From Pseudomonadota bacterium (GTDB taxonomy: Bacteria > Bdellovibrionota_F > JAHFAK01 > JBDREC01), in assembly GCA_043820105.1 (NCBI GenBank), contig JBDREC010000030.1, positions 2,888 through 66,887 on the forward strand: DNA of 64,000 nt, in the 5' to 3' direction. The translations under genes and the position numbers were made by a program. Below are positions 7,100 through 59,951 of the stretch, one piece after another (position 1 is the first letter of the stretch; the number at the start of each line of letters is the position of its first letter). The notes under the pieces were generated by a model. It did no database searches, had not been told where the DNA came from, and worked only from the letters and a program-made list of their open reading frames with translations.

Positions 7100-7275
7100 A
7101 ACGGAAATTGTGAAATGTGCGGCAAATATGTGTTTGAAAAATTGTATCGCACTTTTTTAAAACTATTCCAAATTCTAGAATTTGTTTCTTAATTTTAAAA
7201 AATCCATAAATAATATTATCAAACCCATTGATTTTATTCAATTCACGGTTCTGGCATTTGAATTGCATAGAATTA

Positions 7276-7330
7276 ATTCAAAATTCAAGATTCAAAATTC
7301 AAAATTAAGGATAAAAGTTGAAAGAGAAGA
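7276..7330. repeat. Left copy of ~45-bp direct repeat: (TTCAAAA/TTCAAGA)x4 followed by TTAAGGATAAAAGTTGAAAG
   Basis: Near-identical copy at 7672..7720. Contains the TTG start of the four-helix-bundle ORF. Confidence 0.8.
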
Positions 7331-7713: not shown

Positions 7714-7758
7714 AATAAAAATTAATCTTGAATTTTGAATCTTGAATTTTGAATTAAT
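7672..7758. repeat. Right direct repeat copy (7672-7720) plus adjacent inverted heptamer array (7725-7758)
   Basis: AAGATTCAAGATTCAAGATTCAAAATTAAGAATAAAAGTTGAAAT, then TCTTGAATTTTGAATCTTGAATTTTGAATT, which is the reverse complement of the heptamer part. Contains the TGA stop of the four-helix-bundle ORF. Confidence 0.8.
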
Positions 7759-23150: not shown

Positions 23151-24617
23151 TTAATACAATAAATCAGAATTATTTATTTCTTTTGGTAGTTTATTCAGTA
23201 CCTGTTTCCACATTTTTTTATCTTCCATACAAAGATAAACAGGGCAATCCGGATAGTATGATTTGATTTTTCGTTCTAGTGCTTGAAAGGCTTTTATTCT
23301 TAAAGGTTCATAATAGCGATATTTACGATCACTGTGTAAAGTAAATTCACCTAAAGGCAAAACAGAGTTTTCAAAACGTTCATTAATAATATCTTTTAAT
23401 TTTGGATCAAAACGGAAACAACCCAAGGAAAGCCAAACAAGTTTTTTGACTTGAGATTTGGATTCAAAAATTGAAAATAGTTTATCAATTACATAAGAAT
23501 ATTCTTCTTCAAATCCAGGATAAATAACAATAGGATCAAAATGAAAGGCCAGCTTAAAACCATTCTGCAAGCATGCTTTGGCTGCATTTAACCGTTGCTC
23601 AAGACTTGCTGTATATAGCTCATCAGATTCAATTATTCTGTTTGTGTTTAAAGACCACGAAATAACAATATTTGAAGCATTTTTTTTATGTCTTAAAATA
23701 TTTTCAATATAATCAGATTTTGTTTTAAATTCAATTAAGCAAGAAGGATGATTTTTAGTTATTTTGATTAGTGAACTTGAATAATTAGTAATATGATCAG
23801 TTCCCAGGGAATCAGTTAAATTTCCTGGACCAACTCTTAAGAATTTATTTTTAAACTCAAGCTCCAGCTCTTTTTCAAGGTCAGCAAGATTCGTATAAAT
23901 TGCAATAGGTTTTAAGTTCAAATAATACTGCAAAATGCAATAAGAACAATCAAAAGGACAATTGCTGCCAATATCAAAATTATGATAGTTACAACAAATC
24001 ATTTTCTTTGTTCCAGGGCAACGCCTGGCAAATTTGCCCTTTGATCTTGTAAGGAAAATAGTTTTTTTGCCCTTTAAAATTGGATTTACTGATTCAGCAA
24101 AATAGTCTCGCCAAAAATCCAGAGTAGGCGATTCATTAGGCTCTATAACTTCGATGTTTTCTTTCTGAGCATACTTTAAGGCATTTTTAGCAATAAGGTC
24201 ATTGCACGATTTTGGATCGATTATAATAGTTTCTGGCACGAATTTTGGTCTATATTCTGTTTTGCATTTGGTGTTTAATTTTGAATTTTGAATTTTGAAT
24301 TTTGAATTTATTCCCTTATTCCCTGCAATTACTGGATACCTCCGCGCCCTCAGTCGTTTTTTCACTTCCTCAACAACATTACTATAATCTTTTTCTATAT
24401 TTCTAAATTCTATATCATCTATAATTTTTTCTCTTGTGATTTTCTCTCTTTTTCTAATCTCTTCAATTAGCTCTCCAATTAACAATATATTATTCACGCT
24501 AATTGGATATTTTGTTAGATCATCAAAAAAGTTTAATATACTAGAAAAATATTTTTCTGTTTTCCTTCTTTGTTTATCGGATGGATTTCTATCTTTAAAA
24601 TATTCGTATAAATTCAT
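23151..24617 (-). CDS. Radical SAM protein, spore-photoproduct-lyase (SplB)-like, with ~110-aa N-terminal extension
   Basis: CxxxCxxC motif CPFDCSYC followed by ILQYY. The N-terminal extension contains an in-frame (TTTTGAA)x5 array at 24276-24312, read as NSKFKIQNSKLN. Confidence 0.65.
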   Translation of the reverse strand: MNLYEYFKDRNPSDKQRRKTEKYFSSILNFFDDLTKYPISVNNILLIGELIEEIRKREKITREKIIDDIEFRNIEKDYSNVVEEVKKRLRARRYPVIAGNKGINSKFKIQNSKLNTKCKTEYRPKFVPETIIIDPKSCNDLIAKNALKYAQKENIEVIEPNESPTLDFWRDYFAESVNPILKGKKTIFLTRSKGKFARRCPGTKKMICCNYHNFDIGSNCPFDCSYCILQYYLNLKPIAIYTNLADLEKELELEFKNKFLRVGPGNLTDSLGTDHITNYSSSLIKITKNHPSCLIEFKTKSDYIENILRHKKNASNIVISWSLNTNRIIESDELYTASLEQRLNAAKACLQNGFKLAFHFDPIVIYPGFEEEYSYVIDKLFSIFESKSQVKKLVWLSLGCFRFDPKLKDIINERFENSVLPLGEFTLHSDRKYRYYEPLRIKAFQALERKIKSYYPDCPVYLCMEDKKMWKQVLNKLPKEINNSDLLY

Positions 24618-33048: not shown

Positions 33049-33183
33049 GAATCACTAATATGCATTTCATTTCTTAGACTTAGCCTTTATGAGCCTAAAT
33101 AAAAAGCTTTGAATTCTTATGTTTTCTAGAAATTGGAAGAAATAATGGGAACCTCAAGTTTTTTTAATTATTACTTTACTAAA

Positions 33184-33330
33184 AATCACAAATCACAATA
33201 TCCAAATTACAAGCAAATTACAAATTCAGAAAAACAATAATAAAAACAAAATCTAATTTGTACTTCTTCTTTTTGGTCATTTGGACATTGTAATTTGTGT
33301 ATTGTTTGTAACTTGTTATTTGTTTATTGG
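33184..33330. repeat. Two opposed heptamer arrays (AATCACA-type and its complement ATTTGTG-type) forming a ~150-bp imperfect palindrome
   Basis: AAATCACAAATCACAATATCCAAATTACAAGCAAATTACAAATTC at 33184-33235, and GACATTGTAATTTGTGTATTGTTTGTAACTTGTTATTTGTTTATTGG at 33285-33330. Confidence 0.75.
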
Positions 33331-33933: not shown

Positions 33934-34067
33934 TTTTTTCTCCTCTTTGTTATTAATGAAACAAGCTTGTAGATAATACTAGCAACTTTCATGCCAAAAA
34001 TAGCAATATTATAACTAATTGATTTCATTGAAACGCGAAAATAGAAAATCCTTGTAAAAAGCAAAAA

Positions 34068-34106
34068 GTGACAAAATTTGTCACGTGACATGACAAAATT
34101 TGTCAC
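34068..34106. promoter_or_regulatory. Two adjacent copies of the 17-bp perfect palindrome GTGACAAAATTTGTCAC
   Basis: Read directly in the pilin-upstream / hipA-downstream spacer. Further copies lie at 34153-34169 and 35999-36015. Confidence 0.6.
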
Positions 34107-34152
34107 TCGATTTTTAAGCTGCTGTTATCATTGATTGAATGCGCCGCAGCAA

Positions 34153-34169
34153 GGTGACGAAATTTGTCA
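34153..34169. promoter_or_regulatory. Third palindrome copy (GTGACGAAATTTGTCAC), part of the conserved module palindrome-CTCTAAnnGTGTT-G tract
   Basis: A similar module is found at 35999-36050. Confidence 0.6.
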
Positions 34170-34192
34170 CTTCTCTAATAGTGTTAGTTTCC

Positions 34193-34218
34193 AGGGGGGG
34201 GGGGGGGGGGGCGGGGGG
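34193..34218. repeat. Homopolymeric tract G19-C-G6
   Basis: Counted directly. Extremely atypical for this AT-rich DNA. The paralogous module at 36038-36044 has only G7. Confidence 0.9.
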
Positions 34219-34265: not shown

Positions 34266-35510
34266 TTATTTTTTGCTAAAGAGCTTTTTAGCAACTTTTT
34301 GGTGATACTCTATAATATGCTTAATATCTCTATCAAAAAGATCAAGACTTTTTGCAAGTTTTTTAAATTGAGATATCGCACTTCTAACTTCATCTATTAT
34401 TGCTTTTTTATCATATTCTGAAATTTGAAAAAGTTTAGCCAGGTGATCAAGTTCTCTTATTGAAGGATTTTTTCCTTCACCTGCAATTGTCATTGAATGT
34501 TCACCACCCATGCCTTGTGAAAACATTAAATCATAAGCTGGAGCAAAAGACCAAGTTCCGTTTTTATTCATTAAAAAAGCAAAGTTTTTCACATGATCAT
34601 CCCTGTTAGAGGACAAAATGTTAAAAACCATTAATCTATAGCACATTTTAACTGATTCAAAATCATGTGTAAGTTTTGAGCAAACCTTTAAAAGGGTTTC
34701 ATAATCAACAGATGGCACCCTAAAATCAGCGTGTATTAAATTTCCAAAAGAGTGAAAATGAATTCTTTGATTTCCTTTTCTGTCAAATCTTTTAGTTCCA
34801 AAATAATAATTATTTTTATTATCTTGAAACAAGTGATATTCTGGAATTATAATGCCAGCAGCTTCTGCCATTTGTGAATAAATATACTCTATTTTTCCAG
34901 CTTCTAAAAAGTCGTTTTCAGATCTAAATTTTATCATCCATGCTTCATAATTTTTTGGTAGATCTGACTCTTTTGAAATTAAATCTTTACCATTAAATCC
35001 TACAAGAATTTTGGGTCTGGCTCCACCTGGAGATCCGCCAGTTCTAAAAAGGATGGGCAAAATATCTTTTTCATTTCCTTTTAAAATTTCAATTGAATTT
35101 TGAGAAAGCTCATATAGATTTACTGTTTCATTCTTTTTAAGTTTTAAATCCATAGCTGGTTCATAAGTTAAAGCCCCTATAGTCCTGTTAGCTACAAATA
35201 ACAATCTATCAATATGAGAAATTTCTCTTAAATCCAAGCCTTGTTTATTAAAAAAACGATCTTGTAATAAAAGCCCCCAACCATCTGGCATAGAATCATT
35301 AAATACACCATGAATATAACCTAAGAATGCTTTTTTACATACCTGAAGTCCCATACGACAATCAAGTTTGAATGGTGAAATGTTTATGTTTTTTGAAAGA
35401 AAATTTGAATCATATTCAAAATAAATTCTTTTTTTATTATCCTGAACAATTTGTCCCAATAGTGTCGAATCATTGGAAGAGGTAGTGTAGAAAACCTTTA
35501 CTTTTTTCAT
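34266..35510 (-). CDS. hipA: HipA-family Ser/Thr kinase toxin
   Basis: The N-terminal HipA coupling domain motif (PDGWGLLLQDRFF) and the catalytic region (DDHVKNFAFLM) are both present. 4-nt overlap with the upstream hipB-like gene. Confidence 0.8.
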   Translation of the reverse strand: MKKVKVFYTTSSNDSTLLGQIVQDNKKRIYFEYDSNFLSKNINISPFKLDCRMGLQVCKKAFLGYIHGVFNDSMPDGWGLLLQDRFFNKQGLDLREISHIDRLLFVANRTIGALTYEPAMDLKLKKNETVNLYELSQNSIEILKGNEKDILPILFRTGGSPGGARPKILVGFNGKDLISKESDLPKNYEAWMIKFRSENDFLEAGKIEYIYSQMAEAAGIIIPEYHLFQDNKNNYYFGTKRFDRKGNQRIHFHSFGNLIHADFRVPSVDYETLLKVCSKLTHDFESVKMCYRLMVFNILSSNRDDHVKNFAFLMNKNGTWSFAPAYDLMFSQGMGGEHSMTIAGEGKNPSIRELDHLAKLFQISEYDKKAIIDEVRSAISQFKKLAKSLDLFDRDIKHIIEYHQKVAKKLFSKK

Positions 35511-35815
35511 AATCTTCCTCTTTTTTTCATTTTAATTTTTTCCAGTTTTTCAATATCTTTAATTGATTTTGTTTCAATTTCAGGAAAAAGACACAAGAAA
35601 TCTTCCAAACAATTCAATGCACTAGCAATTTTCAATAAGGATTCAAAAGAAATTTTCCCTGTTAATTCAAATCTTTTAAGGCTTGCTTCAGTAACATTGG
35701 ATTTTTTGGCCAAGGTGCTGCGTTTAAGGTTATGCTGCAAACGCAGGATTTTAGCTTTTTGAGAGACCTTTTTCATTAGCTCAAAGGGAGTATATATATT
35801 AATTTTATGGCTCAT
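35507..35815 (-). CDS. hipB: HipB-like HTH (XRE) antitoxin
   Basis: HTH LKRSTLAKKSNVTEASLKRFE. Translationally coupled to hipA. Confidence 0.7.
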   Translation of the reverse strand: MSHKINIYTPFELMKKVSQKAKILRLQHNLKRSTLAKKSNVTEASLKRFELTGKISFESLLKIASALNCLEDFLCLFPEIETKSIKDIEKLEKIKMKKRGRL

Positions 35816-35998
35816 ATATTAATCTTTGCAAGGCTTAAATGGTATTAATAGATATTATATTGTCTATTATCAGGAATGTCAAGAGTGAATTGGAAAGTTT
35901 TTTCTGTCTTCAATTAATTATTAGTTTATTAATCTTCAGTGTCAGTATTGATATTCCCAGAAAGATAAGCATTAAAACATGACAATTTTTGCCATAGG

Positions 35999-36050
35999 GT
36001 GACAAATTTTGTCACTACTCTAAGGGTGTTTATTCGAGGGGGGGAGGTGC
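35999..36050. promoter_or_regulatory. Fourth palindrome copy plus CTCTAAGGGTGTTTATTCGAG-G7 module
   Basis: GTGACAAATTTTGTCAC followed by a sequence paralogous to 34170-34218. Lies between the hepT stop and the hipB promoter region. Confidence 0.6.
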
Positions 36051-36051
36051 G

Positions 36052-36420
36052 TTATATGGAAATCAGCCTTTTGAAGCTCTTAAGATACAAAGGAAGTTTA
36101 TCATATAATTCATTTGCAAGTTTTTCTTTATACATATGTGCAATCTGATTTCTAGCATCTGTTATTTCCAGCCAAATTTCATCATATTCAAGTAATTCTT
36201 GTTTATATGCTTCTCTAAAAGTTGCTTTAGGAGAATTGGATATTATTCCATGAATATCTTCAAGATATGTTTTTAGCATTTTCCATGAAAGATCAAAGGT
36301 GAATTCAAAACGTTGAATAGCTGAATCTCGCATATATTCAGTTTTATCCTGTTTTAAAACATCATCCAGTCTATTAACAGCTTTGTTTAGCTGTTGTTTA
36401 ATTGCTTCAAGTTTAGTCAT
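36052..36420 (-). CDS. hepT: HepT-like toxin (nucleotidyltransferase substrate-binding protein, HI0074 family / DUF86)
   Basis: 122 aa with the family pattern ...RDSAIQRFEFTFDLSWKMLK...; paired with the upstream MNT gene by an 8-nt overlap. Confidence 0.7.
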   Translation of the reverse strand: MTKLEAIKQQLNKAVNRLDDVLKQDKTEYMRDSAIQRFEFTFDLSWKMLKTYLEDIHGIISNSPKATFREAYKQELLEYDEIWLEITDARNQIAHMYKEKLANELYDKLPLYLKSFKRLISI

Positions 36421-36730
36421 TTATTTTTATTTCCTCTATATTTTGCATTGCTACTTTTTTAAACTCTTCTGAAACTTGTGTAAAATCAACAAGCTCTATT
36501 TTATATAAATAGGGAAGGTTTTCAATATCTTCTTTTATTTTTTCCATTTTTTCTATTGGAATTTGTAAAGTGCCTAAAAGTCCAACATCAATATCTGACC
36601 TTTCTGAACCTTTGCCAGAAACCCTTGAACCAAAGTAAAAGACTCTAAATTCTTCTAAATTTAAGTGCTTTCCTAGAATTTGAATAATATTTGATGTCAA
36701 TTTATTTTTATTACAATTTTTAAAATTCAT
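36413..36730 (-). CDS. mntA: MNT-type nucleotidyltransferase antitoxin (HI0073 family)
   Basis: GSRVSGKGSERSDIDVGLL, the minimal nucleotidyltransferase motif. Confidence 0.7.
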   Translation of the reverse strand: MNFKNCNKNKLTSNIIQILGKHLNLEEFRVFYFGSRVSGKGSERSDIDVGLLGTLQIPIEKMEKIKEDIENLPYLYKIELVDFTQVSEEFKKVAMQNIEEIKIND

Positions 36731-38972: not shown

Positions 38973-39965
38973 GTGTCGAAAAAATTAATTGCTATTTCTT
39001 TGAAATCATTAGATGAATTGAGAATGGAAAATATAAGAAAAAAAATTAAATTAAATAAAAAGAATGAATTTGATGTAATTTCTATAGGTTCAAATGCTGT
39101 TGATGCTATTTGTGTTTTACCTCAATTTCCAGAATATAATAAAAAACTGAGAATGAATGATTTTGAAATTGATGGGGGTGGGCAAGCTTCAACAGCAGCT
39201 GTTGCTTGTTCAAAACTTGGCTTAAAAACAAGATATATTGGAAAAGTTGGAGATGATATTTTTGGAAGGTATGCTATTGAAAGACTGATTGCTGAAAATG
39301 TTGATGTTGAGGGGGTACTTGTTAAACAAAATGCTAAAACTCAGTTTGCTGTTATTATGCTTGAAAAAAATATAGGTGAAAGAACTATTATTTGGAATAG
39401 GGATGATGCTTTAGAGCTTCTAGCTTCTGACCTAGATAAAGATATAATTTGTTCAGGAAAAGTTCTGCTAATTGGAAACAGTCATCCTCTGGCTACTAAA
39501 CAGGCGATTGAATGGGCAGAGAAAGAAGATATGCTAATCGTAATGGATGCCGAAAGAGTTGAAGAACATACAAAAGATATTTTGCCTCATGTTGATGTTT
39601 TAATAGGAGACTCAGAATTTTGTAAGTTAATTAGCCAAGAAAAAGATGATAAAGAAGCTTTAATAAAAACTAAAGATTTAGGTCCAAAGATAGTTGGCTC
39701 AACTTTAGGAGAAAACGGATCGATTTTTTATGATGGAAACAATTTTTATACTTCTAAAGCCTTTAACATTAATACTATCGATACAACTGGAGCAGGCGAT
39801 GTCTTTCATGCTGCCTTTATCAGGGCATTGTTTGAAGATTGGAATTTGCAAAAAACTAGCGACTTTTCAAACGCTGTAGCTGCCATTAAATGTACAGATC
39901 TAGGTGGAAGAAAAGCAATTCCAGGTTTCAATGAAGCCTTGAAATTTCTTTCAGAAAACATTTGA
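38973..39965 (+). CDS. PfkB-family carbohydrate/nucleoside kinase (ribokinase-like)
   Basis: Anion-hole motif DTTGAGDVFHAAFIRAL. GTG start in the ORF track. An alternative ATG (MENIRKK) lies at 39024. Confidence 0.75.
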   Translation: MSKKLIAISLKSLDELRMENIRKKIKLNKKNEFDVISIGSNAVDAICVLPQFPEYNKKLRMNDFEIDGGGQASTAAVACSKLGLKTRYIGKVGDDIFGRYAIERLIAENVDVEGVLVKQNAKTQFAVIMLEKNIGERTIIWNRDDALELLASDLDKDIICSGKVLLIGNSHPLATKQAIEWAEKEDMLIVMDAERVEEHTKDILPHVDVLIGDSEFCKLISQEKDDKEALIKTKDLGPKIVGSTLGENGSIFYDGNNFYTSKAFNINTIDTTGAGDVFHAAFIRALFEDWNLQKTSDFSNAVAAIKCTDLGGRKAIPGFNEALKFLSENI

Positions 39966-40008
39966 TATTACTTTTATTTTAATTTAAAATCCCAATCCAA
40001 TTGAACAT

Positions 40009-40126
40009 TACGCCGTACGCTGTACGCCGTACGCTGAAAGTAGTATTCTGTTTTTCTATTTACTGAATACCGAATACTAAATACTGAATACTAATCTTCC
40101 AGCTTACCACTTACAGCTTACAGCTT
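40009..40126. repeat. Three consecutive different heptamer arrays: (CCGTACG/CTGTACG)x4, (TACTGAA)x5, (CTTACCA/CTTACAG)x4
   Basis: Read directly in the spacer upstream of the phosphofructokinase gene. Confidence 0.85.
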
Positions 40127-40142
40127 TAAAAAGAGGTGTTAA

Positions 40143-41195
40143 ATGACAAAAAGAATTGGAATCTTAACAGGTGGAGGTGATTGCCCAGGTTTGAATGCAG
40201 TTATTAGAGCGATTGTTAGAAAAGGAATGTTACTTGGTTACGAAATGGTTGGAGTTATGGAAGGCTGGAGGGGAATGCTTGATAAAAAAACAGTTGTTCT
40301 TACTAGAAATATGATTTCTGGTATTTTACAAAAGGGTGGAACTATCCTTAAAACAACTAGAACTAATCCTTATAATACCGAAGATGGACCTAAGCTAGTT
40401 GCTAAAAACTTTCACGAAATGGGTTTCCATGCTTTAATAGCAATTGGTGGTGAAGATACTCTTGGCGTTGCGTCCAAATTATATGAGCAGGAAAAACTAA
40501 ATGTTGTTGGTGTTCCAAAAACAATTGATAATGACCTGTCAGGAACAGATCAAACCTTTGGTTTTGATACTGCAATCACTGTGGCTACTGATGCCATTGA
40601 CAGATTGCACACAACAGCTGAATCACATCAACGTGTCCTGGTCTGTGAAGTTATGGGCCGTCATGCAGGCTGGATAGCCGCGTATGCTGGCCTTGCTGGT
40701 GGTGCTGACTACATTCTCATTCCAGAAGTTCCGGTTGATGTTAATAAACTTTGTGAATCTATTGCAAAAAGACATAACCTGGGCAAAGACTTTTCAATTA
40801 TTGTTGTCTCAGAAGGCGCTAAATTAAGTGATGAAACATTAGGTGAAAATGGTCTTGTTCTGCAACATGGTAAAAAAGATGCTTTTGGACATGTAATTTT
40901 AGGTGGTATTGGAAAGACAATGTCAGATATAATTCAGGAAAAAACAGGCTATGAAACTAGATACACAATTCTAGGACATATTCAAAGAGGCGGCTCTCCA
41001 ACAGCTTATGACAGAGTGTTGGGAACAAGATATGGAATTCATGCAATGGAACTTGTTCACTCAGGTCAGTTTGGAAAAATGTCAGCTCTAAGAGGAAATG
41101 ACATTGTAGGAGTTGATCTTGCAAAGGCAACAGAAAGACTAAAAACAGTTCCTGTTGAGTTTTTTAGAGACAATATCGAAATCTTTTTTGAATAG
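40143..41195 (+). CDS. pfk: 6-phosphofructokinase, probably pyrophosphate-dependent
   Basis: PfkA-family fold (GILTGGGDCPGLNAVIRA). IGGEDT has Asp at the E. coli Gly104 position. VPKTIDNDL has Lys at the Gly124 position. This is the residue pair associated with PPi use. Confidence 0.8.
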   Translation: MTKRIGILTGGGDCPGLNAVIRAIVRKGMLLGYEMVGVMEGWRGMLDKKTVVLTRNMISGILQKGGTILKTTRTNPYNTEDGPKLVAKNFHEMGFHALIAIGGEDTLGVASKLYEQEKLNVVGVPKTIDNDLSGTDQTFGFDTAITVATDAIDRLHTTAESHQRVLVCEVMGRHAGWIAAYAGLAGGADYILIPEVPVDVNKLCESIAKRHNLGKDFSIIVVSEGAKLSDETLGENGLVLQHGKKDAFGHVILGGIGKTMSDIIQEKTGYETRYTILGHIQRGGSPTAYDRVLGTRYGIHAMELVHSGQFGKMSALRGNDIVGVDLAKATERLKTVPVEFFRDNIEIFFE

Positions 41196-41203
41196 ATAAA
41201 TAT

Positions 41204-41274
41204 GTACAGCGTACAGAGTACAGCGTACAGCGTGATTATCTTTTACGCCGTACGCTGTACGCCGTACGCTGTAC
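41204..41274. terminator. Long imperfect inverted repeat built from CGTACAG heptamers (29-nt arms, 13-nt loop) between pfk and deoB
   Basis: Left arm GTACAGCGTACAGAGTACAGCGTACAGCG. Right arm CGCCGTACGCTGTACGCCGTACGCTGTAC. Function as terminator or attenuator is inferred. Confidence 0.4.
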
Positions 41275-41290
41275 TTTCTAAGGTATTTAT

Positions 41291-42451
41291 ATGTCAAATT
41301 TTAATCGAGTCTGCGTAATTGTCCTGGATTCAGTTGGCGTTGGCGAGCTTCCTGATGCTGAGAAATATGGTGATGTTGGAAGCAATACACTTGGAAATAT
41401 TGCAAAAGTTACAGGTGGATTAAGTTTACCAAACCTCCAAAAAATGGGTTTAGGAAATATTATTGATGTTTTAGGTGTTGATAAATGTGAAAAACCAATT
41501 GCATCTTGGGGAAAAATGGATGAGGCTTCTCCTGGCAAAGATACAACTACAGGGCATTGGGAAATGGCCGGTATTATTCTTGATAAGCCTTTTGTCACTT
41601 ATGAAAACTGCTTTCCACAGGATCTAATTGATCGCTTTGAAGCTGAAGCCGGATATAAATCAATTGGACATTGTCCAGAGTCTGGAACAGAAATTATAAA
41701 ACGGCTTGGCAATCAACATTATGAAACTGGTGAGCTCATTGTTTACACAAGTGCTGATTCAGTTTTCCAAATTGCAGCTCATGAGGAAAAGGTGCCAATT
41801 GATGAACTTTACAGAATTTGTGAAATTGCACGAAAAATTTGTGATGAATATTCGATTGGAAGAGTCATTGCTCGTCCGTTTGTTGGAGAACCTGGGAATT
41901 TCACAAGAACTGCCAATAGAAAAGATTTTTCTGTAACTCCACCTGCAGATACAATGCTTACTTTGGCTCAAAAAGCCGGGCATAAAGTTGTTGGCATCGG
42001 AAAAACTGATTATATTTTTGATTTCCAGGGAACTACTGATTCCTTTCATGGTGCTACAAATGCTGAAAATGTTGAATCTACTATAAAAGCATTGCAGGAA
42101 TTTAAGGAAGGTTTAATTTTTACAAATCTTGTTGATTTTGATATGTTATGGGGACATAGAAATGATCCAGAAGGTTATAAAAAAGGGTTAGAAGAATTTG
42201 ATGTCTTATTACCAAAAATTTTGGACCTTATTACGGATGATACTTTACTTTTTATTACAGCTGACCATGGCTGTGATCCAACAACAGCCAGTACTGATCA
42301 CTCAAGGGAATATGTTCCAATTTTAATGTATAATCCAAAAATGATTCCAGGAACAGATCTTGGAATAAGAGAAACCTTTGCAGATCTAGCAAAAACGGTA
42401 TGTGAAGTTCTGAAGCTCGATGATTTAAAAGTTGGAAAAAGCTTCCTATAG
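41291..42451 (+). CDS. deoB: Phosphopentomutase
   Basis: N-terminal VIVLDSVGVGELPDA and overall alkaline-phosphatase-superfamily pattern. 386 aa. Confidence 0.9.
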   Translation: MSNFNRVCVIVLDSVGVGELPDAEKYGDVGSNTLGNIAKVTGGLSLPNLQKMGLGNIIDVLGVDKCEKPIASWGKMDEASPGKDTTTGHWEMAGIILDKPFVTYENCFPQDLIDRFEAEAGYKSIGHCPESGTEIIKRLGNQHYETGELIVYTSADSVFQIAAHEEKVPIDELYRICEIARKICDEYSIGRVIARPFVGEPGNFTRTANRKDFSVTPPADTMLTLAQKAGHKVVGIGKTDYIFDFQGTTDSFHGATNAENVESTIKALQEFKEGLIFTNLVDFDMLWGHRNDPEGYKKGLEEFDVLLPKILDLITDDTLLFITADHGCDPTTASTDHSREYVPILMYNPKMIPGTDLGIRETFADLAKTVCEVLKLDDLKVGKSFL

Positions 42452-42495
42452 ATAAAACGCCGTACGCTGTACGATTTCCCCAAAAGGAGACTAAT

Positions 42496-43803
42496 TTGAA
42501 CGCCTACGAACTTATTAAAAAGAAAAGAGATGGTTCAGAATTAAATTATGAAGAACTCGAAAGCTTTTTGCAGGCATATTTAAACGGTGATATTAAAGAC
42601 TATCAAATGTCAGCAATGTTAATGGCAATGTTATTAAAAGGGATGTCATTTGAAGAAGTCTCAAATTATACAAAGATCTTAATGAAGTCAGGTGATATTT
42701 ATGACTTTGCAGATCTTGATGGTCCTAAAGTTGATAAGCATTCAACTGGAGGAGTTGGTGACAAGCCTTCAATTGTTTTAGCACCCCTTTTGGCTTCTGT
42801 TGGAGTATATGTGCCAATGGTGTCTGGACGAGGCCTAGGTCATACAGGTGGCACATTAGATAAACTTGAAGCAATTTCTGGTTTTAACACACAAGTATCT
42901 TACGAAGAATTTAAAAACATTCTATATAAAGTTGGCTGTGTTATGGGTGGTCAAACCCAAAACTTTGTGCCTCTTGATAAAATGCTTTATGCTCTCAGAG
43001 ATGTTACAGCTACAGTTGATGACATGAATCTAATTTGTGGTTCTATAATGAGCAAAAAACTATCTGAAGGCATTGATGCTTTAGTTTTAGATGTTAAGAC
43101 AGGAAGTGGTGCCTTTATGGTTGCATATGAAGACTCAAAAGCACTTGCAAAGCTTTGTGTAACAATTGGTAACAATATTGGCAAAAAGGTAAGGGCAATA
43201 ATAACTGATATGAATCAGCCTCTTGGATCTTATGTTGGCAATTCCTGTGAAATTTTTGAGTGTATAAAGTTGCTAAGAGGTGATGAAGTTGCTTCTGACA
43301 TTTATGATCTTACCATGAAACTTGCCCAAGAAATGTATTTATTATCAGGGAAAACAACCTCAAAAGAAGAAGCAGATAAGGTCTTAAAAGAAGCCATTAC
43401 ATCTGGCCGTGCACTTGAAAAATTTGGAGAGCTTATTGAGGCTCATGGTGGAAATCCAAAGGTAATAGAAGATACTAACTTGCTGCCAGATACAGAAAAC
43501 AGGTATGAGCTTAAAGCTCAAAGGTCTGGTTATATTTCTGAAATAAAAACAAATGATATTGGTTTTGCAGGAATTTATCTTGGAGCTGGCAGAAAAACTT
43601 TAGACACTCAAATAGATCATGCTGTAGGCTTTAAGATTAATAAAAAACTAGGTGATAAGATATCAGCTGGTGATACTATCTTAACTATCCATTACAATAA
43701 TGATTCAGGTCTTGGAGCTGCAATAAATAAATTGAATGAGTCCTACATAATTTCAGACAAACATTATGAACCTGGAAAGTTAATTAAAGAAATAGTGGAC
43801 TAA
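42496..43803 (+). CDS. pdp: Pyrimidine-nucleoside (thymidine) phosphorylase
   Basis: Phosphate-binding motif DKHSTGGVGDK. TTG start 7 nt after SD AAGGAG. Confidence 0.9.
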   Translation: MNAYELIKKKRDGSELNYEELESFLQAYLNGDIKDYQMSAMLMAMLLKGMSFEEVSNYTKILMKSGDIYDFADLDGPKVDKHSTGGVGDKPSIVLAPLLASVGVYVPMVSGRGLGHTGGTLDKLEAISGFNTQVSYEEFKNILYKVGCVMGGQTQNFVPLDKMLYALRDVTATVDDMNLICGSIMSKKLSEGIDALVLDVKTGSGAFMVAYEDSKALAKLCVTIGNNIGKKVRAIITDMNQPLGSYVGNSCEIFECIKLLRGDEVASDIYDLTMKLAQEMYLLSGKTTSKEEADKVLKEAITSGRALEKFGELIEAHGGNPKVIEDTNLLPDTENRYELKAQRSGYISEIKTNDIGFAGIYLGAGRKTLDTQIDHAVGFKINKKLGDKISAGDTILTIHYNNDSGLGAAINKLNESYIISDKHYEPGKLIKEIVD

Positions 43804-43980
43804 GTTTATTAATTTAAAATAATTCGCGACATTCAATACACAAGCAGTTAATTGCAACAAAAATATTGCCCCAAATTATCATTTAATTACATGTATTTAA
43901 AAAACGACCAAGCCATTGCCACGTGGCATCATTTTTGCATGCTTATTTTGCTAAATTTATTTTTCATTATAGGGCATTTT

Positions 43981-46900
43981 ATGAGACTAATTACTTTTTC
44001 ACTAAAGATAAAAAACTGTTTTTCTTATTTCTTAATTATAGCTGTTCAATTTTTGTTTATATTAGAATTAAGTTTATATGCTTCTTCAGAAAACTGTATG
44101 AGGCTTTTTTCAGATGAAAGAATTATTTCAACCCAAGATAGCCAGCAAGTAAATAAAGAAACCGCACAACAAGCATCTGCTAACTCACAAAGAAATTCTG
44201 CTAAAGATAAAATCATTTTTTCAATTAATGCTCCAAAGAGTATTTCGAATAAAGTAGAACTAGCTTCTGAAATGTTAGAAAGAGAAATGCAGGCAAATTA
44301 TGGATCATACTCATCAGAGCACCCAGTATTTAAATATGTTGAATCCATTTTAAAGGATATCTTTGCAGGTCTTGATGGAAAGCCTTTCAAGTTAATAGTA
44401 ACGAAAGGATGGGAAGAAGTAAATGCATGTGTTTTAGGCAATGGAACAATTATTTTTTCAGACAGATTACTAACTTTTTGTGAAACTGTAGAAGAGCTTC
44501 ATTTTATTTTAAGTCACGAAGTAATACATGCAAAAAAGCATCTCAAAGAATATGAAGACAAACAGGATACAACAGTTGGAACACTCTTAAAAGACTTCTA
44601 TCAAAACCTGTTTAGGGATAGAATGCAAGAGTATGAAGCAGATATTAGAGGTTTTACAGAAGGGTCGGGTTCAAGTGATTCAATTATTAATCCTTATGGA
44701 GGGATTGTTTTTTTTAATCGCTTAATGGAAATTGAAAGATCTTCTAAAAGCAAATATAATCGCAGCTTTAATTATGGTCTTACTCATGGTAGAAGTGCAG
44801 ATAGGCTTTTAAACCTTCACTTTGCAACAAGATTAGTTGATATTGACAATCTCTCAAGAGATTTGACTGTAATTCCTGATGAAATAAGAGACAAACTAGA
44901 TTTTCGAAGGTCTTTAGAAAAAGAAATATTGAAACCATTGGAAGTTAAATCAGGAGAAGATCTAAGTAATATTATTTCTGCAAGAGAAGCAGCTTTGGAA
45001 AAAGCTAATTTTTATATATTAAAAAATGCAGTGTCCATTTTATATAAGAGATATATGGATAAATATTCATCAAGGAGAACTGCCAGTGATAGTGATAATT
45101 TTTTAGAACCAATTGAAAAAGAGTTTTTACTTAAAACTCTTAATGCCTTTAAAAAAGAAATCGATATAATTTTAGAAGAAAAAAAGGTTCCAGTTTTTTT
45201 AAGGCCCTTATTCCGTGGAATAATAATTGCTTTAAGTTCTGATTTGCCAATAGAAGATGCAAGACCAATGCTTGATGGCTCTGACCCGGAAAATGCATTA
45301 GCCTGTTTTAGAGATTTTTTTGATTATTTTGAAGATAAGGCTGACTACCTTGATTTGCCTGATAATTTGGAAGAATTTGCAAAACTTGATTTGCCTCTTA
45401 CAAATAAACCAAAAGAACTCCTGCAATTTTTGATAAATGAATCTTTAGATGAGGAAATTTTTAGTGATAATCAGGGCAATTTTGACCTTGGACTATATAG
45501 AGACTATGTGCGCAGGCTAAGTGAGTCAACAAAGAAACTTTATGATAAAGTTGGATTAACTAAAGATATAGATTCAAATATGCTTTATGCAGAACTTTTG
45601 CCTTATGCTTTATTAAACTATTCAAGAGATGAAATGAATCAAGTTGCCCAGGATCTTATCTTAGATGTTGGTGAAAATATGAATGATTTTTATGAAGCAG
45701 CCAGAAAGGATGTGGAAATTCCCGAGAAAGTATTAGATAAAGCAAAAAAGAATTTAGAGGAAAGTGATAATAAAAAAGATATATCACCAAAAAGAAAAGA
45801 GTTTTTGGATATAGCAATGGAATACCTTAATAGCTTTAGAGACTTTATAAAGAATCCTCCAGAGGAATTTGAATCAGAATTTATAGCGGAATCTGCTTTT
45901 ATTGAAAATCATAGCAAAACATTTATAAGTAAAATAGATTCATTTGCATGGAAAACTCAAGAAGAAGTAATTATAGCATTAACAAAATTATTCAGAGAAG
46001 ATCTCAATAAAGAAGACATTAGAAAAGTTGTAAAGCTAATATTTGAATGCCCGGACTTTTTCTCAAGTAAAAGATCTTATATTGATGAGAATATGAGTCC
46101 AGTAGGTAAGGCTGCATTTTTAGTTAGAATATTAAGATTCTGTTTTGATTTTGATGAGTTTGGCTCCCTTGTTGGACACAAGGCTTCAATTCCAGATTTT
46201 CTTAACAATGGTTTTAGCTTTACTAGCAGATGGGAATATATTGATAAAAGAACAAATAATGCAGAAATTAAAGAACTCTATAAAATGCTTTTTCATAATA
46301 TAGAATCTATTAATGATCTTAAAGCTACAGAAACAAAAAAAGACGAAGCAATAGAAGATTCATATAATCAAATATATTTTGCTTATTTAGATTACTTGAG
46401 CAAAGAAAAAAATATAGAAGAGTTTAGAATATTATTTGATGATATAATAGATATTGCTCCTAGAAATAGCACTGAGTTTTTAGAATTTCAATTAACAGCA
46501 GCAGCATCTATTTTTGAAAATTATGATTTTGATTTTTCTAATCCTGAGCATTTAGACCTTTATATAAAAGCATGTTCTTTGGTTCCAGATAGTGTACTTG
46601 CTTCGCAGTTAGTTGAAAATGGTCTGGAAAAAGCTTTTGATTATCTGGATAACAAAACACTTGAAAATTATTTATTTCAAGATGAAAGGCTTGCTTTTTT
46701 ATCATTAACAAAAATTAGATCTAGATACATAAATGAGCGTATCCGATCAGTTGAACATCTTGACAGAGCTTTAGAAAAAATCGCCTCAGCCTCTATTCCA
46801 AAACAGCAATCAATACAAGAAAGGGGAGGCAAAGCTTTAATAGGAAATGAAATATTGGATATCTTAATTAATGACCCATTTAATTTTCTCAAAATCGCAA

Positions 46901-48675
46901 TTTTTGAAAGACATTCAGACATGAAGCTTAAAACAGCCTTACTAAATGCCTATCTTTTTTATGTTGAAAATATTGTGCATTTGGGTGGTAACCCTGCAGA
47001 CAGAAGAACAGAAGAAGATTTTATTGGTTTTGCAAGCCATTATGAAAGAATGTTTTCTTTAGATAATGTCACAAAACATAATATTTTAAAAAAATTATTA
47101 ATTGGAGAAAATGGTGTCTTAAGAAATGAAAGTAAGAAGCTAGAAATGCTTGAGCTTATATTGGAAGTTCTAGTCAGAGAAGGAAAAACAGATGCAGAGA
47201 GCAGGCTACGCTCAATATTGAGCATTGGTTTAAAATCCATTGCAATGCAGGCAGATGATATTTCATTATATTTTTTCATAGCAAACTTTTTACATGATCA
47301 AATGTTTATAAGACCTGAAAGTGAAAGCTCTTGGGTTGATGTACTGATTGAATCAGATGTTTTCAAAGATTATAGCAGAGAGTATTACAAAAAAGAAGAA
47401 CTTGAAGAACTTGCTAAACCAATTGCCAATGCTATTAGTAGCTCTCCAAGTGCTAAACATGACAGTTATATTTTTTATGAAGGATCTAGTCCAAATTTAG
47501 ATCTTTTAAGAAGAAATCTTTTTGATAAAGCTTCAAGATACTTGCCAAGCATAGAAGGAGGTGAAAAGAAAAATTACTCGCCAGTTGAATTCATTGTTGA
47601 AGTAGCAAGCAACTTATATGCACCAGGTAAAAGAGCATTACAAATAATGGGACAATATCTAGAGATCCCTGAAGAGTTTGAAGAAGATTTTTCAAAGGTC
47701 TATGATGCAATGGAAGGTCAGTCTAAGTTATCAGGCTATCACACCTTGAAAAGAAACTGGGAAGGTTCAGAAGAAGAGCTTCTTGATTTTGGTTTATATG
47801 AAGGGGGTGGCTCTTTGGTAACAGTGTGGAAGGCAGAAACAAAAAGAAATGGTACTGAAGTTTTAAGAGTGCTAAACCCTAATGTAGAATATCACATGCA
47901 AGAGATATGTGATATTTTAGAAGAAGCTTTTAGGAAGCTAGAAGCAGAATATCCTGATGCAAGACTTGCAGTACTTGCAGTTAATGATATAAGAGAGTGG
48001 ATAAGACGAGATATTAATGACCAAAACTTTTGGGATAATGATGTAATTTTTCATGATTTACACCATGGGTTTTCTGCACCTGGTTCTGGGTTTAGTATTT
48101 ATATCCCAAAGTCTTATGAACCAAGATCTGCTAAAGTAAAAAGAGAAGAATATATTGAGGGCATAAATCTAACAAGATGGCAAGGCACAGAAGAAGAAAG
48201 AAAAGATATAGTAAGTTCAATTGTAGTAAATTTTATTTATCAAATTGGAAATGGCTTAGTTTTATCTGATATTCATCCCGGTAATATTAGAATTATGAAT
48301 GGCAATAAAATTGCCTATCTTGACAGGAATCTTTATATTGAAATCACAGGAGCAGAAAAGGACTTATTATCATCTGTTATAACTGGACAAGAATTAATAA
48401 TTATTGATACTTTTACTTCATATTTACAGGAAATACCTGAAAACAGAAACATTAATGTTCAGGCAATCCTTGAAAATGCAGTCTTAGCATCTTCAAACAT
48501 TAATGACCCAACAAAAAGATTTTTAGATATCCTGGTAAAGGTAAAATCTTCAAATATCAAAGTACCCTTAAAAATTACCTTATTAATTAAAAATGCTTTA
48601 GCTCTAAATAAAATGTCTAAAAAAGCAGGCTTTAATAGTTTAGTTGAAGCAGCAATGTATCCACATACAAGATAG
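43981..48675 (+). CDS. Giant membrane-anchored multidomain protein: M48-like HExxH peptidase domain, long helical region, C-terminal UbiB/ABC1-like atypical kinase domain
   Basis: N-terminal hydrophobic helices. VNACVLGNGTIIFSDRLL...ELHFILSHEVIHAKKH is the M48/M56 pattern. The C-terminus has a Gly-rich loop EGGGSLVTVWKAE, DIHPGNIRI (compare ABC1 DPHPGNI) and a YLDRN DFG-like motif. Start moved to the Met at 43981 (MRLITFSL). Confidence 0.65.
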   Translation: MRLITFSLKIKNCFSYFLIIAVQFLFILELSLYASSENCMRLFSDERIISTQDSQQVNKETAQQASANSQRNSAKDKIIFSINAPKSISNKVELASEMLEREMQANYGSYSSEHPVFKYVESILKDIFAGLDGKPFKLIVTKGWEEVNACVLGNGTIIFSDRLLTFCETVEELHFILSHEVIHAKKHLKEYEDKQDTTVGTLLKDFYQNLFRDRMQEYEADIRGFTEGSGSSDSIINPYGGIVFFNRLMEIERSSKSKYNRSFNYGLTHGRSADRLLNLHFATRLVDIDNLSRDLTVIPDEIRDKLDFRRSLEKEILKPLEVKSGEDLSNIISAREAALEKANFYILKNAVSILYKRYMDKYSSRRTASDSDNFLEPIEKEFLLKTLNAFKKEIDIILEEKKVPVFLRPLFRGIIIALSSDLPIEDARPMLDGSDPENALACFRDFFDYFEDKADYLDLPDNLEEFAKLDLPLTNKPKELLQFLINESLDEEIFSDNQGNFDLGLYRDYVRRLSESTKKLYDKVGLTKDIDSNMLYAELLPYALLNYSRDEMNQVAQDLILDVGENMNDFYEAARKDVEIPEKVLDKAKKNLEESDNKKDISPKRKEFLDIAMEYLNSFRDFIKNPPEEFESEFIAESAFIENHSKTFISKIDSFAWKTQEEVIIALTKLFREDLNKEDIRKVVKLIFECPDFFSSKRSYIDENMSPVGKAAFLVRILRFCFDFDEFGSLVGHKASIPDFLNNGFSFTSRWEYIDKRTNNAEIKELYKMLFHNIESINDLKATETKKDEAIEDSYNQIYFAYLDYLSKEKNIEEFRILFDDIIDIAPRNSTEFLEFQLTAAASIFENYDFDFSNPEHLDLYIKACSLVPDSVLASQLVENGLEKAFDYLDNKTLENYLFQDERLAFLSLTKIRSRYINERIRSVEHLDRALEKIASASIPKQQSIQERGGKALIGNEILDILINDPFNFLKIAIFERHSDMKLKTALLNAYLFYVENIVHLGGNPADRRTEEDFIGFASHYERMFSLDNVTKHNILKKLLIGENGVLRNESKKLEMLELILEVLVREGKTDAESRLRSILSIGLKSIAMQADDISLYFFIANFLHDQMFIRPESESSWVDVLIESDVFKDYSREYYKKEELEELAKPIANAISSSPSAKHDSYIFYEGSSPNLDLLRRNLFDKASRYLPSIEGGEKKNYSPVEFIVEVASNLYAPGKRALQIMGQYLEIPEEFEEDFSKVYDAMEGQSKLSGYHTLKRNWEGSEEELLDFGLYEGGGSLVTVWKAETKRNGTEVLRVLNPNVEYHMQEICDILEEAFRKLEAEYPDARLAVLAVNDIREWIRRDINDQNFWDNDVIFHDLHHGFSAPGSGFSIYIPKSYEPRSAKVKREEYIEGINLTRWQGTEEERKDIVSSIVVNFIYQIGNGLVLSDIHPGNIRIMNGNKIAYLDRNLYIEITGAEKDLLSSVITGQELIIIDTFTSYLQEIPENRNINVQAILENAVLASSNINDPTKRFLDILVKVKSSNIKVPLKITLLIKNALALNKMSKKAGFNSLVEAAMYPHTR

Positions 48676-52700: not shown

Positions 52701-52776
52701 ATTTTTTATTAAGTGATTAAAAGCAAATAAAATGTAAATTGTAAAAACTACTTACCACTTACCACTTACCACTTAT

Positions 52777-53316
52777 TTATAATTCTTCTACTACAATATT
52801 ATAATTTGTAAAAACACAAATATCTGCAGCGACTTTTAAAGACTTTTCAGCTATTTCTTTAGCTGATAAATCAGTATTTTCTTTTAAAGCTCTGGCAGCA
52901 GCCAGTGCAAAGGATCCGCCTGATCCTATTGCAGCGATTCCATCATCAGGTTCAATGACATCGCCTCTACCTGATAAGGTTAATATTGTTTCATCATTTG
53001 CAACAATCATTAAAGCTTCTAATTGCCTTAAGAATTTATCTGATCTCCATTCTTTAGCTAGCTCAACAGAAGCTCTTGTAATATTACCGTTGTATTCTTC
53101 GAGCTTTGCTGAAAACTTATCAAATAAAGTAAAGGCATCAGCTGTTGCTCCAGCAAAACCTGCAATCACTTTATCATTAAAAAGTCTTCTAACTTTCCTG
53201 GCAGTAGCTTTCATTATTGTATTTTGCAAACTTACTTGCCCATCACCTGCCAAAGCAACTTTTCCATCTTTTTGCACAGCTAAAATGGTTGTTGCGTGAA
53301 ATGTTATTTCTGACAT
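52777..53316 (-). CDS. hslV: ATP-dependent protease subunit HslV, CodW-type (N-terminal Ser plus 5-residue extension)
   Basis: [14 protein letters not shown] closely parallels Bacillus CodW (MSSFHATTIFAV). Strong similarity continues through [26 protein letters not shown]. Confidence 0.9.
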
Positions 53317-53331
53317 GTTCTCTCCATTTTT

Positions 53332-53361
53332 GTTGCTGGTTGCTGGTTGCTAGTTGCTGGT
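53332..53361. repeat. Heptamer array (GTTGCTG)x4
   Basis: Read directly in the hslV upstream spacer. Confidence 0.85.
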
Positions 53362-53432
53362 GAAAAAACCTATCACATAATAACAAACAAGCAGCAATCC
53401 AAATTTATCTAAGTGTTTGAATTTGGTTTTCT

Positions 53433-53468
53433 ACCACTTACCACTTACCACTTACCACTTACCACTTA
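53433..53468. repeat. Heptamer array (CTTACCA)x5
   Basis: Read directly. The same unit recurs at 52749-52776, 40096-40126 and, as its complement, at 29693-29731. Confidence 0.85.
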
Positions 53469-59847: not shown

Positions 59848-59858
59848 AAAAGCTTTTT

Positions 59859-59929
59859 TCTGGGCTCGTTCAATGGTAGGACAACAGACTCTGACTCTGT
59901 TTATCGGGGTTCGAATCCTCGGCCCAGAG
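59859..59929 (+). tRNA. tRNA-Gln (anticodon CUG)
   Basis: Manual fold. Acceptor TCTGGGC/GCCCAGA with a U1-A72 pair typical of bacterial tRNA-Gln. D-stem GTTC/GGAC. Anticodon stem ACAGA/TCTGT with loop CTCTGAC. T-arm CGGGG-TTCGAAT-CCTCG. No encoded CCA. T-run follows. Confidence 0.75.
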
Positions 59930-59951
59930 TTTTTTCTATTGGATACATAAG

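Follow-up and report, generated by a model that had tools for sequence, protein, structure and literature searches.

Heptanucleotide tandem arrays around a phosphofructokinase gene as likely members of a wider repeat population in a deep-branching bacterial genome

The 6-phosphofructokinase gene pfk of a Pseudomonadota-labeled bacterium is enclosed by arrays of 7-nt tandem repeats, and a long hairpin made of two opposed arrays separates it from the next gene, deoB. The locus lies in a 64,000-nucleotide stretch of contig JBDREC010000030.1 (assembly GCA_043820105.1), which we analyzed as a whole and refer to as the window. Is this hairpin a device dedicated to its operon, such as a terminator, an attenuator, or a mobile palindrome, or is it one instance of something more general? 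We favor the latter, with a probability of roughly 70%: the pfk arrays and their hairpin likely belong to a population of short tandem repeats with heptanucleotide units that spans the whole genome and is of the type described as short tandemly repeated repetitive (STRR) sequences or long simple-sequence repeats (LSSRs). This population sits in many gene spacers of an AT-rich, deep-branching metagenome-assembled genome (MAG). Its arrays would arise and vary in length by replication slippage, which is known to favor 7-nt units. From there, arrays would reach neighboring spacers through gene conversion, recombination, or copying over short distances. Switching of strand or template would supply them with inverted partners, after which the arrays would decay.

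Period-7 arrays across the window

Arrays of period 7 characterize this genome as a whole, a point that the preliminary description of the pfk locus had overlooked. Our autocorrelation scan of the 64 kb, to which all window-wide counts and all statements of confinement to the operon refer, detected 10 to 18 such arrays depending on the threshold, compared with zero to one in shuffled sequences. At the same thresholds, the window contained no arrays with periods of 8 to 10. A looser threshold yielded 23 period-7 arrays, where 0.57 were expected. Overall, the density in the window was 0.28 per kb, approximately 16 times the 0.017 per kb found elsewhere, that is, in a comparison set of 80 unrelated genomes that had been fetched for another purpose (24 arrays in 1.39 Mb).

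The arrays are typically 25–40 nt long and comprise 3.6–5.7 units. Thirteen of 18 are fully intergenic, and the other five touch the ends of open reading frames (ORFs) or form an in-frame linker; non-coding DNA accounts for 14% of the window and has a guanine-cytosine (GC) content of 28%. Many arrays end 11–26 nt 5′ of a start codon (7318, 7776, 40143, 41291, 42496, the GTG at 17797, and, on the minus strand, 14245 and 53316), others adjoin stop codons, and one sits between convergent genes. The repeated units belong to several families: CAAAATT (approximately nine arrays), ACTTACC (four arrays), TACGCYG (in the pfk operon only), TACTGAA, TTTGGTA, and GTTGCTG. The genes that flank them are ordinary housekeeping genes, including hslVU, xerC, thiC, prfA/prmC, a gene of the 5-enolpyruvylshikimate-3-phosphate synthase family (PF00275), lolA, and others. 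For example, both Tandem Repeats Finder (TRF) and our scan placed ACTTACC x3.7 in the hslV/hslU spacer, and GTTGCTG x3.9 together with TACCACT x5.3 in the xerC/hslV spacer (52750–53468, minus strand). The arrays are arranged in three architectures: single arrays, compound runs of different units, and opposed pairs of the same unit that fold into long stems. With at least three tandem units, an excess of period 7, a bias toward spacers, and convergent pairs, they display the hallmarks of heptanucleotide simple-sequence repeats (SSRs).

Folding is common to only part of these arrays. When 16 array-bearing and 18 array-less spacers were folded and compared with dinucleotide shuffles, five of the array-bearing spacers had a z-score of −3.7 or lower, and a sixth reached −2.4; none of the array-less spacers fell under −2.0. 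Structure is an occasional, not a defining, property of the arrays.

The position of the arrays, which end just ahead of the Shine-Dalgarno sequence of many genes, and their narrow length distribution of approximately four to five units would also suit a regulator of transcription or translation that recognizes the arrays by sequence as its DNA or RNA binding sites, a role proposed for the TAACTGA repeats of Beggiatoaceae and for the heptamer repeats of Nostoc. In addition, deletion of a heptamer repeat altered reporter expression in Nostoc/E. coli constructs (bioRxiv 10.1101/2022.06.06.494920). However, at least six unrelated unit families are present in the 64 kb, and the commonest unit shows no strand bias, with four CAAAATT-family arrays in sense and four in antisense orientation relative to the flanking genes. 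Some arrays follow stop codons, one separates convergent genes, and one is in frame within an ORF, and the flanking genes share no functional theme. Scrambled control heptamers, moreover, were as common as the real units in viral contigs, as detailed below. We thus consider it quite unlikely that the arrays serve as the sites of one such regulator.

The in-frame array is a 33-nt member of the CAAAATT family at 24277–24309, which encodes NSKFKIQNSKL inside ORF 23151–24617. This ORF contains a spore-photoproduct-lyase-like domain, with the Pfam domain starting at residue 126, and the array lies between this domain and an N-terminal region of approximately 100 amino acids (aa). It may be a linker derived from the repeat, or two ORFs may have fused here. 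Repeat palindromes with periods other than 7 were also observed. The spacer at 33183–33329 carries AAATCAC x2.3 and an 11-mer repeat with inverted copies (TTGTAATTTGT and similar) approximately 75 nt further on, the arms being 18 nt long and 89% complementary. Similarly, a metagenome contig (L202) has an opposed pair of 9-mers, CACAGAGGA and TCCTCTGTG, at 15543–15608.

The pfk cluster and its hairpin

The pfk cluster comprises four genes, all on the plus strand, as are the repeat elements described in this section. A sugar kinase of the PfkB family comes first (38973–39965; NCBIfam ribokinase-like matches, none reaching the equivalog cut-offs). It is followed by pfk, a 6-phosphofructokinase of the “mixed” type (40143–41195; TIGR02483, 461 bits, over the cut-off), whose product is 100% identical to NCBI MFH1727810.1; by the phosphopentomutase gene deoB (41291–42451; NF003766, 533 bits); and by the pyrimidine-nucleoside phosphorylase gene pdp (42496–43803; TIGR02644, 532 bits). 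These profile matches confirmed the names that pfk, deoB, and pdp had been given from the sequence, and added the identity of the upstream neighbor.

Head-to-tail 7-nt units, with a TRF period of 7 and 3.7–4.6 copies, occur at all five sites around pfk. Upstream of the gene, a TACGCYG array (40008–40036; 40009–40036 by TRF) alternates between TACGCCG and TACGCTG, its four units forming a 14-mer repeated twice at 100% identity. Next comes a TACTGAA array of 4.6 units at 84% (40061–40092; TRF and our scan), which has a short inverted partner, TAGTATTCTGTTTTT, at 40041–40055 (15-nt arms, 87% complementary to 40079–40093). A CTTACMR array (CTTCCAG/CTTACCA/CTTACAG; 4.4 units at 79% by TRF) completes the series at 40096–40126 and ends 16 nt 5′ of the pfk ATG. 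Downstream, the left arm of the hairpin, GTACAGC x4.3 (41204–41233), begins 8 nt 3′ of the pfk stop codon; its unit is TACGCTG in inverted orientation. It is separated by the loop GATTATCTTTT (41234–41244, from the repeat search and the fold) from the right arm, TACGCYG x4.4 (41245–41274; 41244–41274 by TRF). The right arm ends 16 nt 5′ of the deoB ATG, and an AAGG Shine-Dalgarno sequence can be read between the two. The arm sequence of the hairpin is CGCCGTACGCTGTACG. The hairpin had been described with 29-nt arms; we found 30-nt arms with three mismatches, which an inverted-repeat search stretches to 43 nt at 79%. Finally, the deoB/pdp spacer holds a single-arm remnant of 2.3 units, ACGCCGTACGCTGTAC, at 42457–42472, 23 nt 5′ of the pdp start. 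A single-arm copy had indeed been noted after deoB, but its exact extent is these 16 nt and not the whole of 42451–42475.

These elements are closely related to one another. A 29-mer, TTACGCCGTACGCTGTACGCCGTACGCTG, is 100% identical at 40008–40036 and 41243–41271, and the 16-mer of the arm, allowing up to three mismatches, occurs 10 times in the window, always within 40011–42473 (chance expectation, 0.00). Further copies of the arm, whose presence had been left for a search to establish, thus exist within the operon, and none was detected in the rest of the 64 kb. In the pfkB-pfk-deoB-pdp cluster, each of three successive spacers contains the TACGCYG family, which is found nowhere else in the window. 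The three upstream arrays are likewise present as reported, but they are not three different arrays: the segments 40012–40040 and 40096–40124 are inverted 29-nt arms with 76% complementarity, and the reverse complement of CTTACAG, CTGTAAG, is 1 nt from CTGTACG, itself a rotation of TACGCTG. The region 40005–40130 folds as a nested imperfect hairpin (−32.3 kcal/mol, z = −5.6). The upstream arrays are mutual inverted partners in a decayed nested palindrome. We infer a relative age for the three spacers, with an old, decayed array palindrome between the kinase and pfk, a young, fresh one between pfk and deoB, and a remnant between deoB and pdp.

The identical 29-mers bound a 1206-nt segment that holds just pfk and repeats. 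Such a segment might have been generated if pfk, together with its upstream arrays and one inverted arm, had been inserted by recombination into an array between the sugar kinase and deoB, so that the array was duplicated and the hairpin marks the junction. From pathway knowledge, the kinase, deoB, and pdp without pfk would form a coherent nucleoside/pentose unit, and MacGregor likewise suspected heptamer arrays in gene rearrangement (PMC4679880). However, the GC content at third codon positions of pfk is ordinary and outside the 12 highest values (window mean 0.221, s.d. 0.031), and on this ground we also rejected a recent horizontal transfer of the gene. Since pfk, deoB, and hslU are similarly distant from their database homologs, nothing marks pfk as foreign. 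Among the homologs found, none came from a relative with an empty site, and gene conversion between adjacent arrays accounts for the identity of the 29-mers equally well. An insertion of pfk is thus unlikely in our view.

Folding the pfk/deoB spacer as RNA, as had been proposed, revealed a very stable structure of −50.9 kcal/mol (z = −7.83), with none of 200 shuffles as good. In the survey based on dinucleotide shuffles, it was the most stable structure among all window spacers (z = −9.3), which makes an RNA-level effect between pfk and deoB plausible. The opposite strand folds even more strongly (−53.0 kcal/mol), because two A·C mismatches turn into G·U pairs. The right arm matches the upstream array copy perfectly, whereas its complementarity to the left arm is just 90%. 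This indicates that the copies were homogenized more recently, or more strongly, than perfect pairing was selected. An AU-rich base extends the stem, pairing 41197–41204 with 41282–41289 beside the deoB start region. On paper, the upstream array could also pair with the left arm over a long range and so enclose pfk (46-nt arms, 76% complementary); we rejected this possibility, as both local hairpins persist in the minimum free energy fold of 1.3 kb. Rfam searches returned only tRNA matches in the window, and only sub-threshold matches to miRNA precursors within 39900–42600 (30–38 bits vs. 89–101), which reflect a generic long hairpin.

A GC-rich stem of this stability, directly 3′ of the pfk stop codon, readily suggests a dedicated Rho-independent terminator or an attenuator that splits pfk, deoB, and pdp into separate transcription units, and the preliminary description had raised both. 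In Xanthomonas, too, convergent heptamer pairs are found near the end of the upstream ORF (PMC4692102). However, UUUCUAAG, the sequence 3′ of the stem, contains four U in eight positions, three of them consecutive, and falls short of the U-tract criterion of the terminator scan; the scan flagged only a 6-bp internal sub-hairpin within the right arm. Lacking a U-tract directly 3′ of its GC-rich stem-loop, the hairpin is not a canonical intrinsic terminator. The deoB Shine-Dalgarno sequence and ATG follow within 16 nt, leaving no space for a promoter, and no promoter-like site was found on the plus strand of 41196–41290. As for attenuation, we found neither a leader ORF nor an alternative pairing at pfk/deoB. 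Furthermore, a counterpart hairpin elsewhere in the window, described below, overlaps the coding 3′ end of a gene, and the majority of the window’s arrays of the same class are unstructured. We accordingly give little credence to a dedicated terminator, and attenuation does not stand.

The preliminary description had also proposed an element like the repetitive extragenic palindromic (REP) sequences. A mobile palindrome of this kind, whether related to REP sequences, to the REP doublets forming hairpins (REPINs), or to miniature inverted-repeat transposable elements, and spread by a dedicated transposase, would agree with the extragenic location and with the three arm copies in 2.5 kb, of which two share 29 identical nucleotides. 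Yet the arm does not occur in the other 61 kb of the window, the other hairpins are built from unrelated heptamers, and the arms are internally periodic simple repeats without a conserved consensus. Among the window’s ORFs of at least 100 aa, there is no gene for a REP-associated tyrosine transposase (RAYT), an IS200-like transposase, or an integron integrase. Just one tyrosine recombinase is encoded, by a xerC-like gene that belongs to the xerC-hslVU cluster, 12 kb away. Judged by the absence of a nearby IntI integrase and by the housekeeping genes on its flanks, the locus does not resemble an integron attC site either. A mobile palindrome is very improbable.

The arrangement around pfk has a counterpart at a second gene. 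An AATTCAA x4.6 array (7275–7306, plus strand; TRF and our scan) ends 11 nt 5′ of the gene at 7318–7713, which encodes a four-helix-bundle protein of PF05635, the 23S rRNA intervening sequence (IVS) protein family. At the other end of the gene, opposed AAGATTC and AATYTTG arrays form a plus-strand hairpin at 7672–7755 (7672–7698 and 7724–7755; 29-nt arms, 90% complementary), which folds at −35.3 kcal/mol (z = −7.45) and lies 20 nt 5′ of the next start (7776). This hairpin overlaps the 3′ end of the gene, and the array encodes approximately its last 20 codons. The PF05635 gene and pfk thus have a common layout, with an array upstream and an opposed-array hairpin downstream.

Such a layout raises an alternative in which the arrays are not mutational litter but actively propagating operon punctuation. 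Arrays would be copied to nearby spacers, for which the perfect 29-nt copies and the presence of one family in three consecutive spacers might be cited. They would then become opposed pairs whose stems of approximately 30 bp are cut or protected by double-strand-specific RNases, and polycistronic mRNAs would be segmented gene by gene, in the manner of IVS stem processing in rRNA. If this were true, its signature would be the recurrence of the bracket layout at pfk, at the PF05635 gene, and at the deoB of a relative, which is described below. We consider this alternative quite unlikely.

Should the stem between pfk and deoB be functional, our best guess, by analogy, is that it acts as an intercistronic stem-loop of the type formed by REP sequences and bacterial interspersed mosaic elements (BIMEs). 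In a polycistronic mRNA, the stem of approximately 30 bp would extend from 8 nt past the pfk stop to 16 nt short of the deoB start. It could act as a barrier to 3′ exonucleases, provide a substrate for a double-strand RNase of the RNase III type, or modulate the initiation of deoB translation, with the AU-rich base perhaps coupling deoB initiation to pfk translation. Any of these roles would uncouple pfk expression from that of deoB-pdp. Such an effect is probably a secondary outcome of the repeat process rather than the work of a dedicated device, and the hairpin could equally be nearly neutral.

Several other features of the window are of separate interest. Directly 3′ of pdp lies an ORF of 1607 aa (43852–48675), mostly without a Pfam match, in which we recognized an M48-peptidase-like segment (residues 171–229) and an ABC1 atypical-kinase domain (residues 1320–1511). 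Upstream of the cluster, a run of 25 G interrupted by one C (34194–34218) precedes a hipA/helix-turn-helix pair resembling HipBA (34266–35815), and a shorter G run, GAGGGGGGGAGG, at approximately 36035 precedes an MNT/HEPN-like pair (36052–36730). A perfect palindrome, GTGACAAAATTTGTCAC, occurs in three copies within 34066–34172, and the related GGTGACAAATTTTGTCAC lies near 36000 (approximately 35990–36020). These palindromes, in spacers beside the two gene pairs of toxin-antitoxin type, are putative operator sites. In addition, the segment 60496–60606 (111 nt), adjoining a tRNA-Gln (59858–59930) and a macro-domain gene, gave an Rfam tRNA match exactly at the threshold (29 bits) and no ARAGORN call. 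Its 5′ part is similar to tRNA-Ser (anticodon loop CTCGAAA) and its 3′ part is disrupted; a tRNA that has been truncated or interrupted may be present here.

Arrays in other genomes and metagenomes

Searches with the products of pfk, deoB, and hslU returned matches of 100% identity to an NCBI MAG labeled Pseudomonadota (MFH1727810.1 and others), followed by matches of 60–66%, and a scan of genome contigs with pfk retrieved nothing over 64% identity. The nearest deoB homolog (63%, JGI sample 3300045072) has CAGAAGR heptamer arrays on both sides, and its contig (L081) ends within an array. The nearest hslVU genes (70–77%, from the same sample) are separated by an array-free spacer of 27 nt, compared with 76 nt including an array in the window. 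The relative in this sample is represented by contigs Ga0494959_0111444 and Ga0494959_0059704. A contig from ENA with 62% GC carries opposed AACAGCG arrays in its hslV/hslU spacer and in one further spacer. A candidate that appeared by bit score to be a closer HslU relative (P0242) was rejected, as its identity is 60–67% and its HslU, from an organism of 62% GC, contains an internal duplication; it nevertheless served as an independent example of opposed arrays.

The unit itself is widespread. We found (TACGCYG)x3 in at least 120 metagenome contigs, which range from 28% to 76% GC among the matches listed and often carry further heptamer arrays; none of the listed contigs encodes close relatives of the window’s proteins. 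To these 120 contigs we added the window and three contigs of relatives (L081, L202, and L203), and counted pairs of arrays separated by no more than 120 nt. This census comprised 68 neighboring pairs: 13 of the same unit in inverted orientation, 21 of the same unit in direct orientation, 29 of different units, and five ambiguous. By chance, the two arrays of a pair would share a unit at a rate of approximately 1%. Same-unit pairs far exceed this rate, and compound and opposed arrays are thus standard architectures of this repeat class.

The particular units, in contrast, are not special. Viral contigs contained TACGCYG x3 in five cases and CAAAATT x4 in 25, and composition-matched scrambled heptamers were as frequent, with 9, 8, 14, and 39 loci. 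Any heptamer seems able to form arrays. The unit GACAGAA occurs both in an IVS of Coxiella and in L081, but we rejected a shared heptamer vocabulary, or a horizontal spread of units, in view of the equal frequency of the scrambled heptamers. A CTG/CAG core was not enriched in the units. As a separate observation, TCA/TGA is present in 32 of the 66 units that co-occur with TACGCYG arrays (contigs L082–L201), compared with 16 expected from letter-shuffled units, and in 10 of the window’s units, compared with 4.8. The significance of these values is uncertain, because heptamer units are not independent. A period of 7 nt places any stop codon into all three frames within 21 nt.

Metagenome contigs often begin or end in heptamer arrays (L081 at 1739–1851, and the ends of L172, L178, L132, and L120). 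Assemblies of short reads thus often break at heptamer arrays, and counts of such arrays in MAGs are probably too low. The same behavior, of which L081 is an example, could in principle have produced the pfk hairpin as an assembly artifact, either a fold-back chimera or mis-joined repeats. However, the contig around the hairpin measures 69 kb, the genes on either side are intact, correctly spaced, and equipped with Shine-Dalgarno sequences, and the same architecture is present in independent JGI, ENA, and NCBI assemblies. An artifact is extremely unlikely.

Several points weigh against our attribution of the pfk arrays to a slippage-driven repeat population. The nearest homologs are just 60–77% identical and offer no strain-level view of variation in 7-nt copy number, which is the signature of slippage. 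The confinement of TACGCYG to this operon holds just for the 64-kb window. Pure neutral slippage does not obviously predict array lengths as narrow as 25–40 nt, nor does neutral slippage obviously predict a GC-rich unit such as TACGCYG within non-coding DNA of 28% GC. Each of the RNA-level roles proposed for the stem, moreover, is something that we infer.

Comparison with known repeat systems

Since 1990, arrays of heptanucleotides in bacteria have attracted attention several times, as STRR sequences, as Mrazek’s long SSRs, as the GGGAATC arrays of Xanthomonas, and as the TAACTGA arrays of Beggiatoaceae. The class is known, is still unexplained in origin and function, and here gains a further member from an unsampled lineage. 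The window is an unusually dense case, at approximately 16 times the background, from a lineage without close sequenced relatives, and it presents all three architectures together. One array family has evidently been copied between adjacent spacers. The window is thus useful material on the spread of arrays and on whether hairpins affect the expression of operons. For annotation, the lesson is that hairpins made of heptamer arrays should not be labeled as terminators, REP sequences, or attenuators by default.

As cited in PMC4679880, Mrazek (2007) found heptamers to be the commonest class of long SSRs in many bacteria, with slippage proposed as the cause. In Xanthomonas, approximately 185 GGGAATC arrays of unknown function were described, of which those with about four units are the commonest, approximately 90% are intergenic, and 70–75 close convergent pairs are able to form stem-loops (Rehm et al. 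2015, PMC4692102). The arrays of the window resemble these, and the GGGGAYT arrays of Nostoc, in having 7-nt units dispersed on both strands, convergent pairs, and no theme among neighboring genes (PMC4692102). Unlike those units, the units found here are not G-rich, so the formation of G-quadruplexes does not apply, and several unrelated families share a genome in place of the one dominant motif of Xanthomonas. Whereas the Xanthomonas arrays are nearer to the upstream ORF (28 nt vs. 160 nt), those of the window lie in short spacers, next to stop codons as well as start codons.

The cyanobacterial STRR sequences of Calothrix and Nostoc are similar in that multiple heptamer families share a genome and lie near starts or promoters. 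In Nostoc PCC 7120, TTCAAAA/TTTTGAA arrays lie near start codons (bioRxiv 10.1101/2022.06.06.494920), and CAAAATT, the commonest unit of the window, is a rotation of TTCAAAA, a unit tabulated for Nostoc. The host here, however, belongs to another phylum (an NCBI-labeled Pseudomonadota MAG), and a common origin does not follow from the shared unit, given that viral contigs contain scrambled heptamers just as often. TAACTGA and mixed heptamers have been reported near starts in Beggiatoaceae, some Cyanobacteria, and Bacteroidetes (MacGregor 2015, PMC4679880). The Beggiatoaceae arrays share with those of the window a size of 2–6 copies, a distance of a few to tens of nucleotides from starts, frequent mixing of heptamers, and a location in the spacers of essential operons. 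The TAACTGA dimer TAACTGATAACTGA itself has no match in the window with up to two mismatches, the nearest unit being ATACTGA at 40061–40092. The “forward” bias of the Beggiatoaceae arrays is absent here, with equal numbers in the two orientations, and inverted pairs are common, whereas they are nearly absent from the BOGUAY genome (169 direct sets and one indirect; PMC4679880).

As extragenic palindromes between co-transcribed genes, the array hairpins resemble the REP/BIME elements of enterobacteria and the REPINs of Pseudomonas. REP sequences have a conserved consensus of approximately 35 nt, occur in hundreds of copies, and are spread by RAYT transposases; the stem-loops that REP/BIME elements form in mRNA can stabilize upstream cistrons. 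Here, by contrast, the arms are locus-specific 7-nt tandem repeats, and the window has no RAYT gene. The IVS of Coxiella burnetii offers a further parallel: it contains a PF05635 (S23p) ORF after GACAGAT x2–3, with a copy number that varies among strains, and is enclosed by a stem that RNase III cuts (PMC4990558). The PF05635 gene of the window lies outside rRNA, pfk is an ordinary metabolic gene, and a role for RNase III here would rest on analogy. The window’s PF05635 gene is likewise preceded by a short heptamer array, AATTCAA x4.6, and is then followed by an array hairpin.

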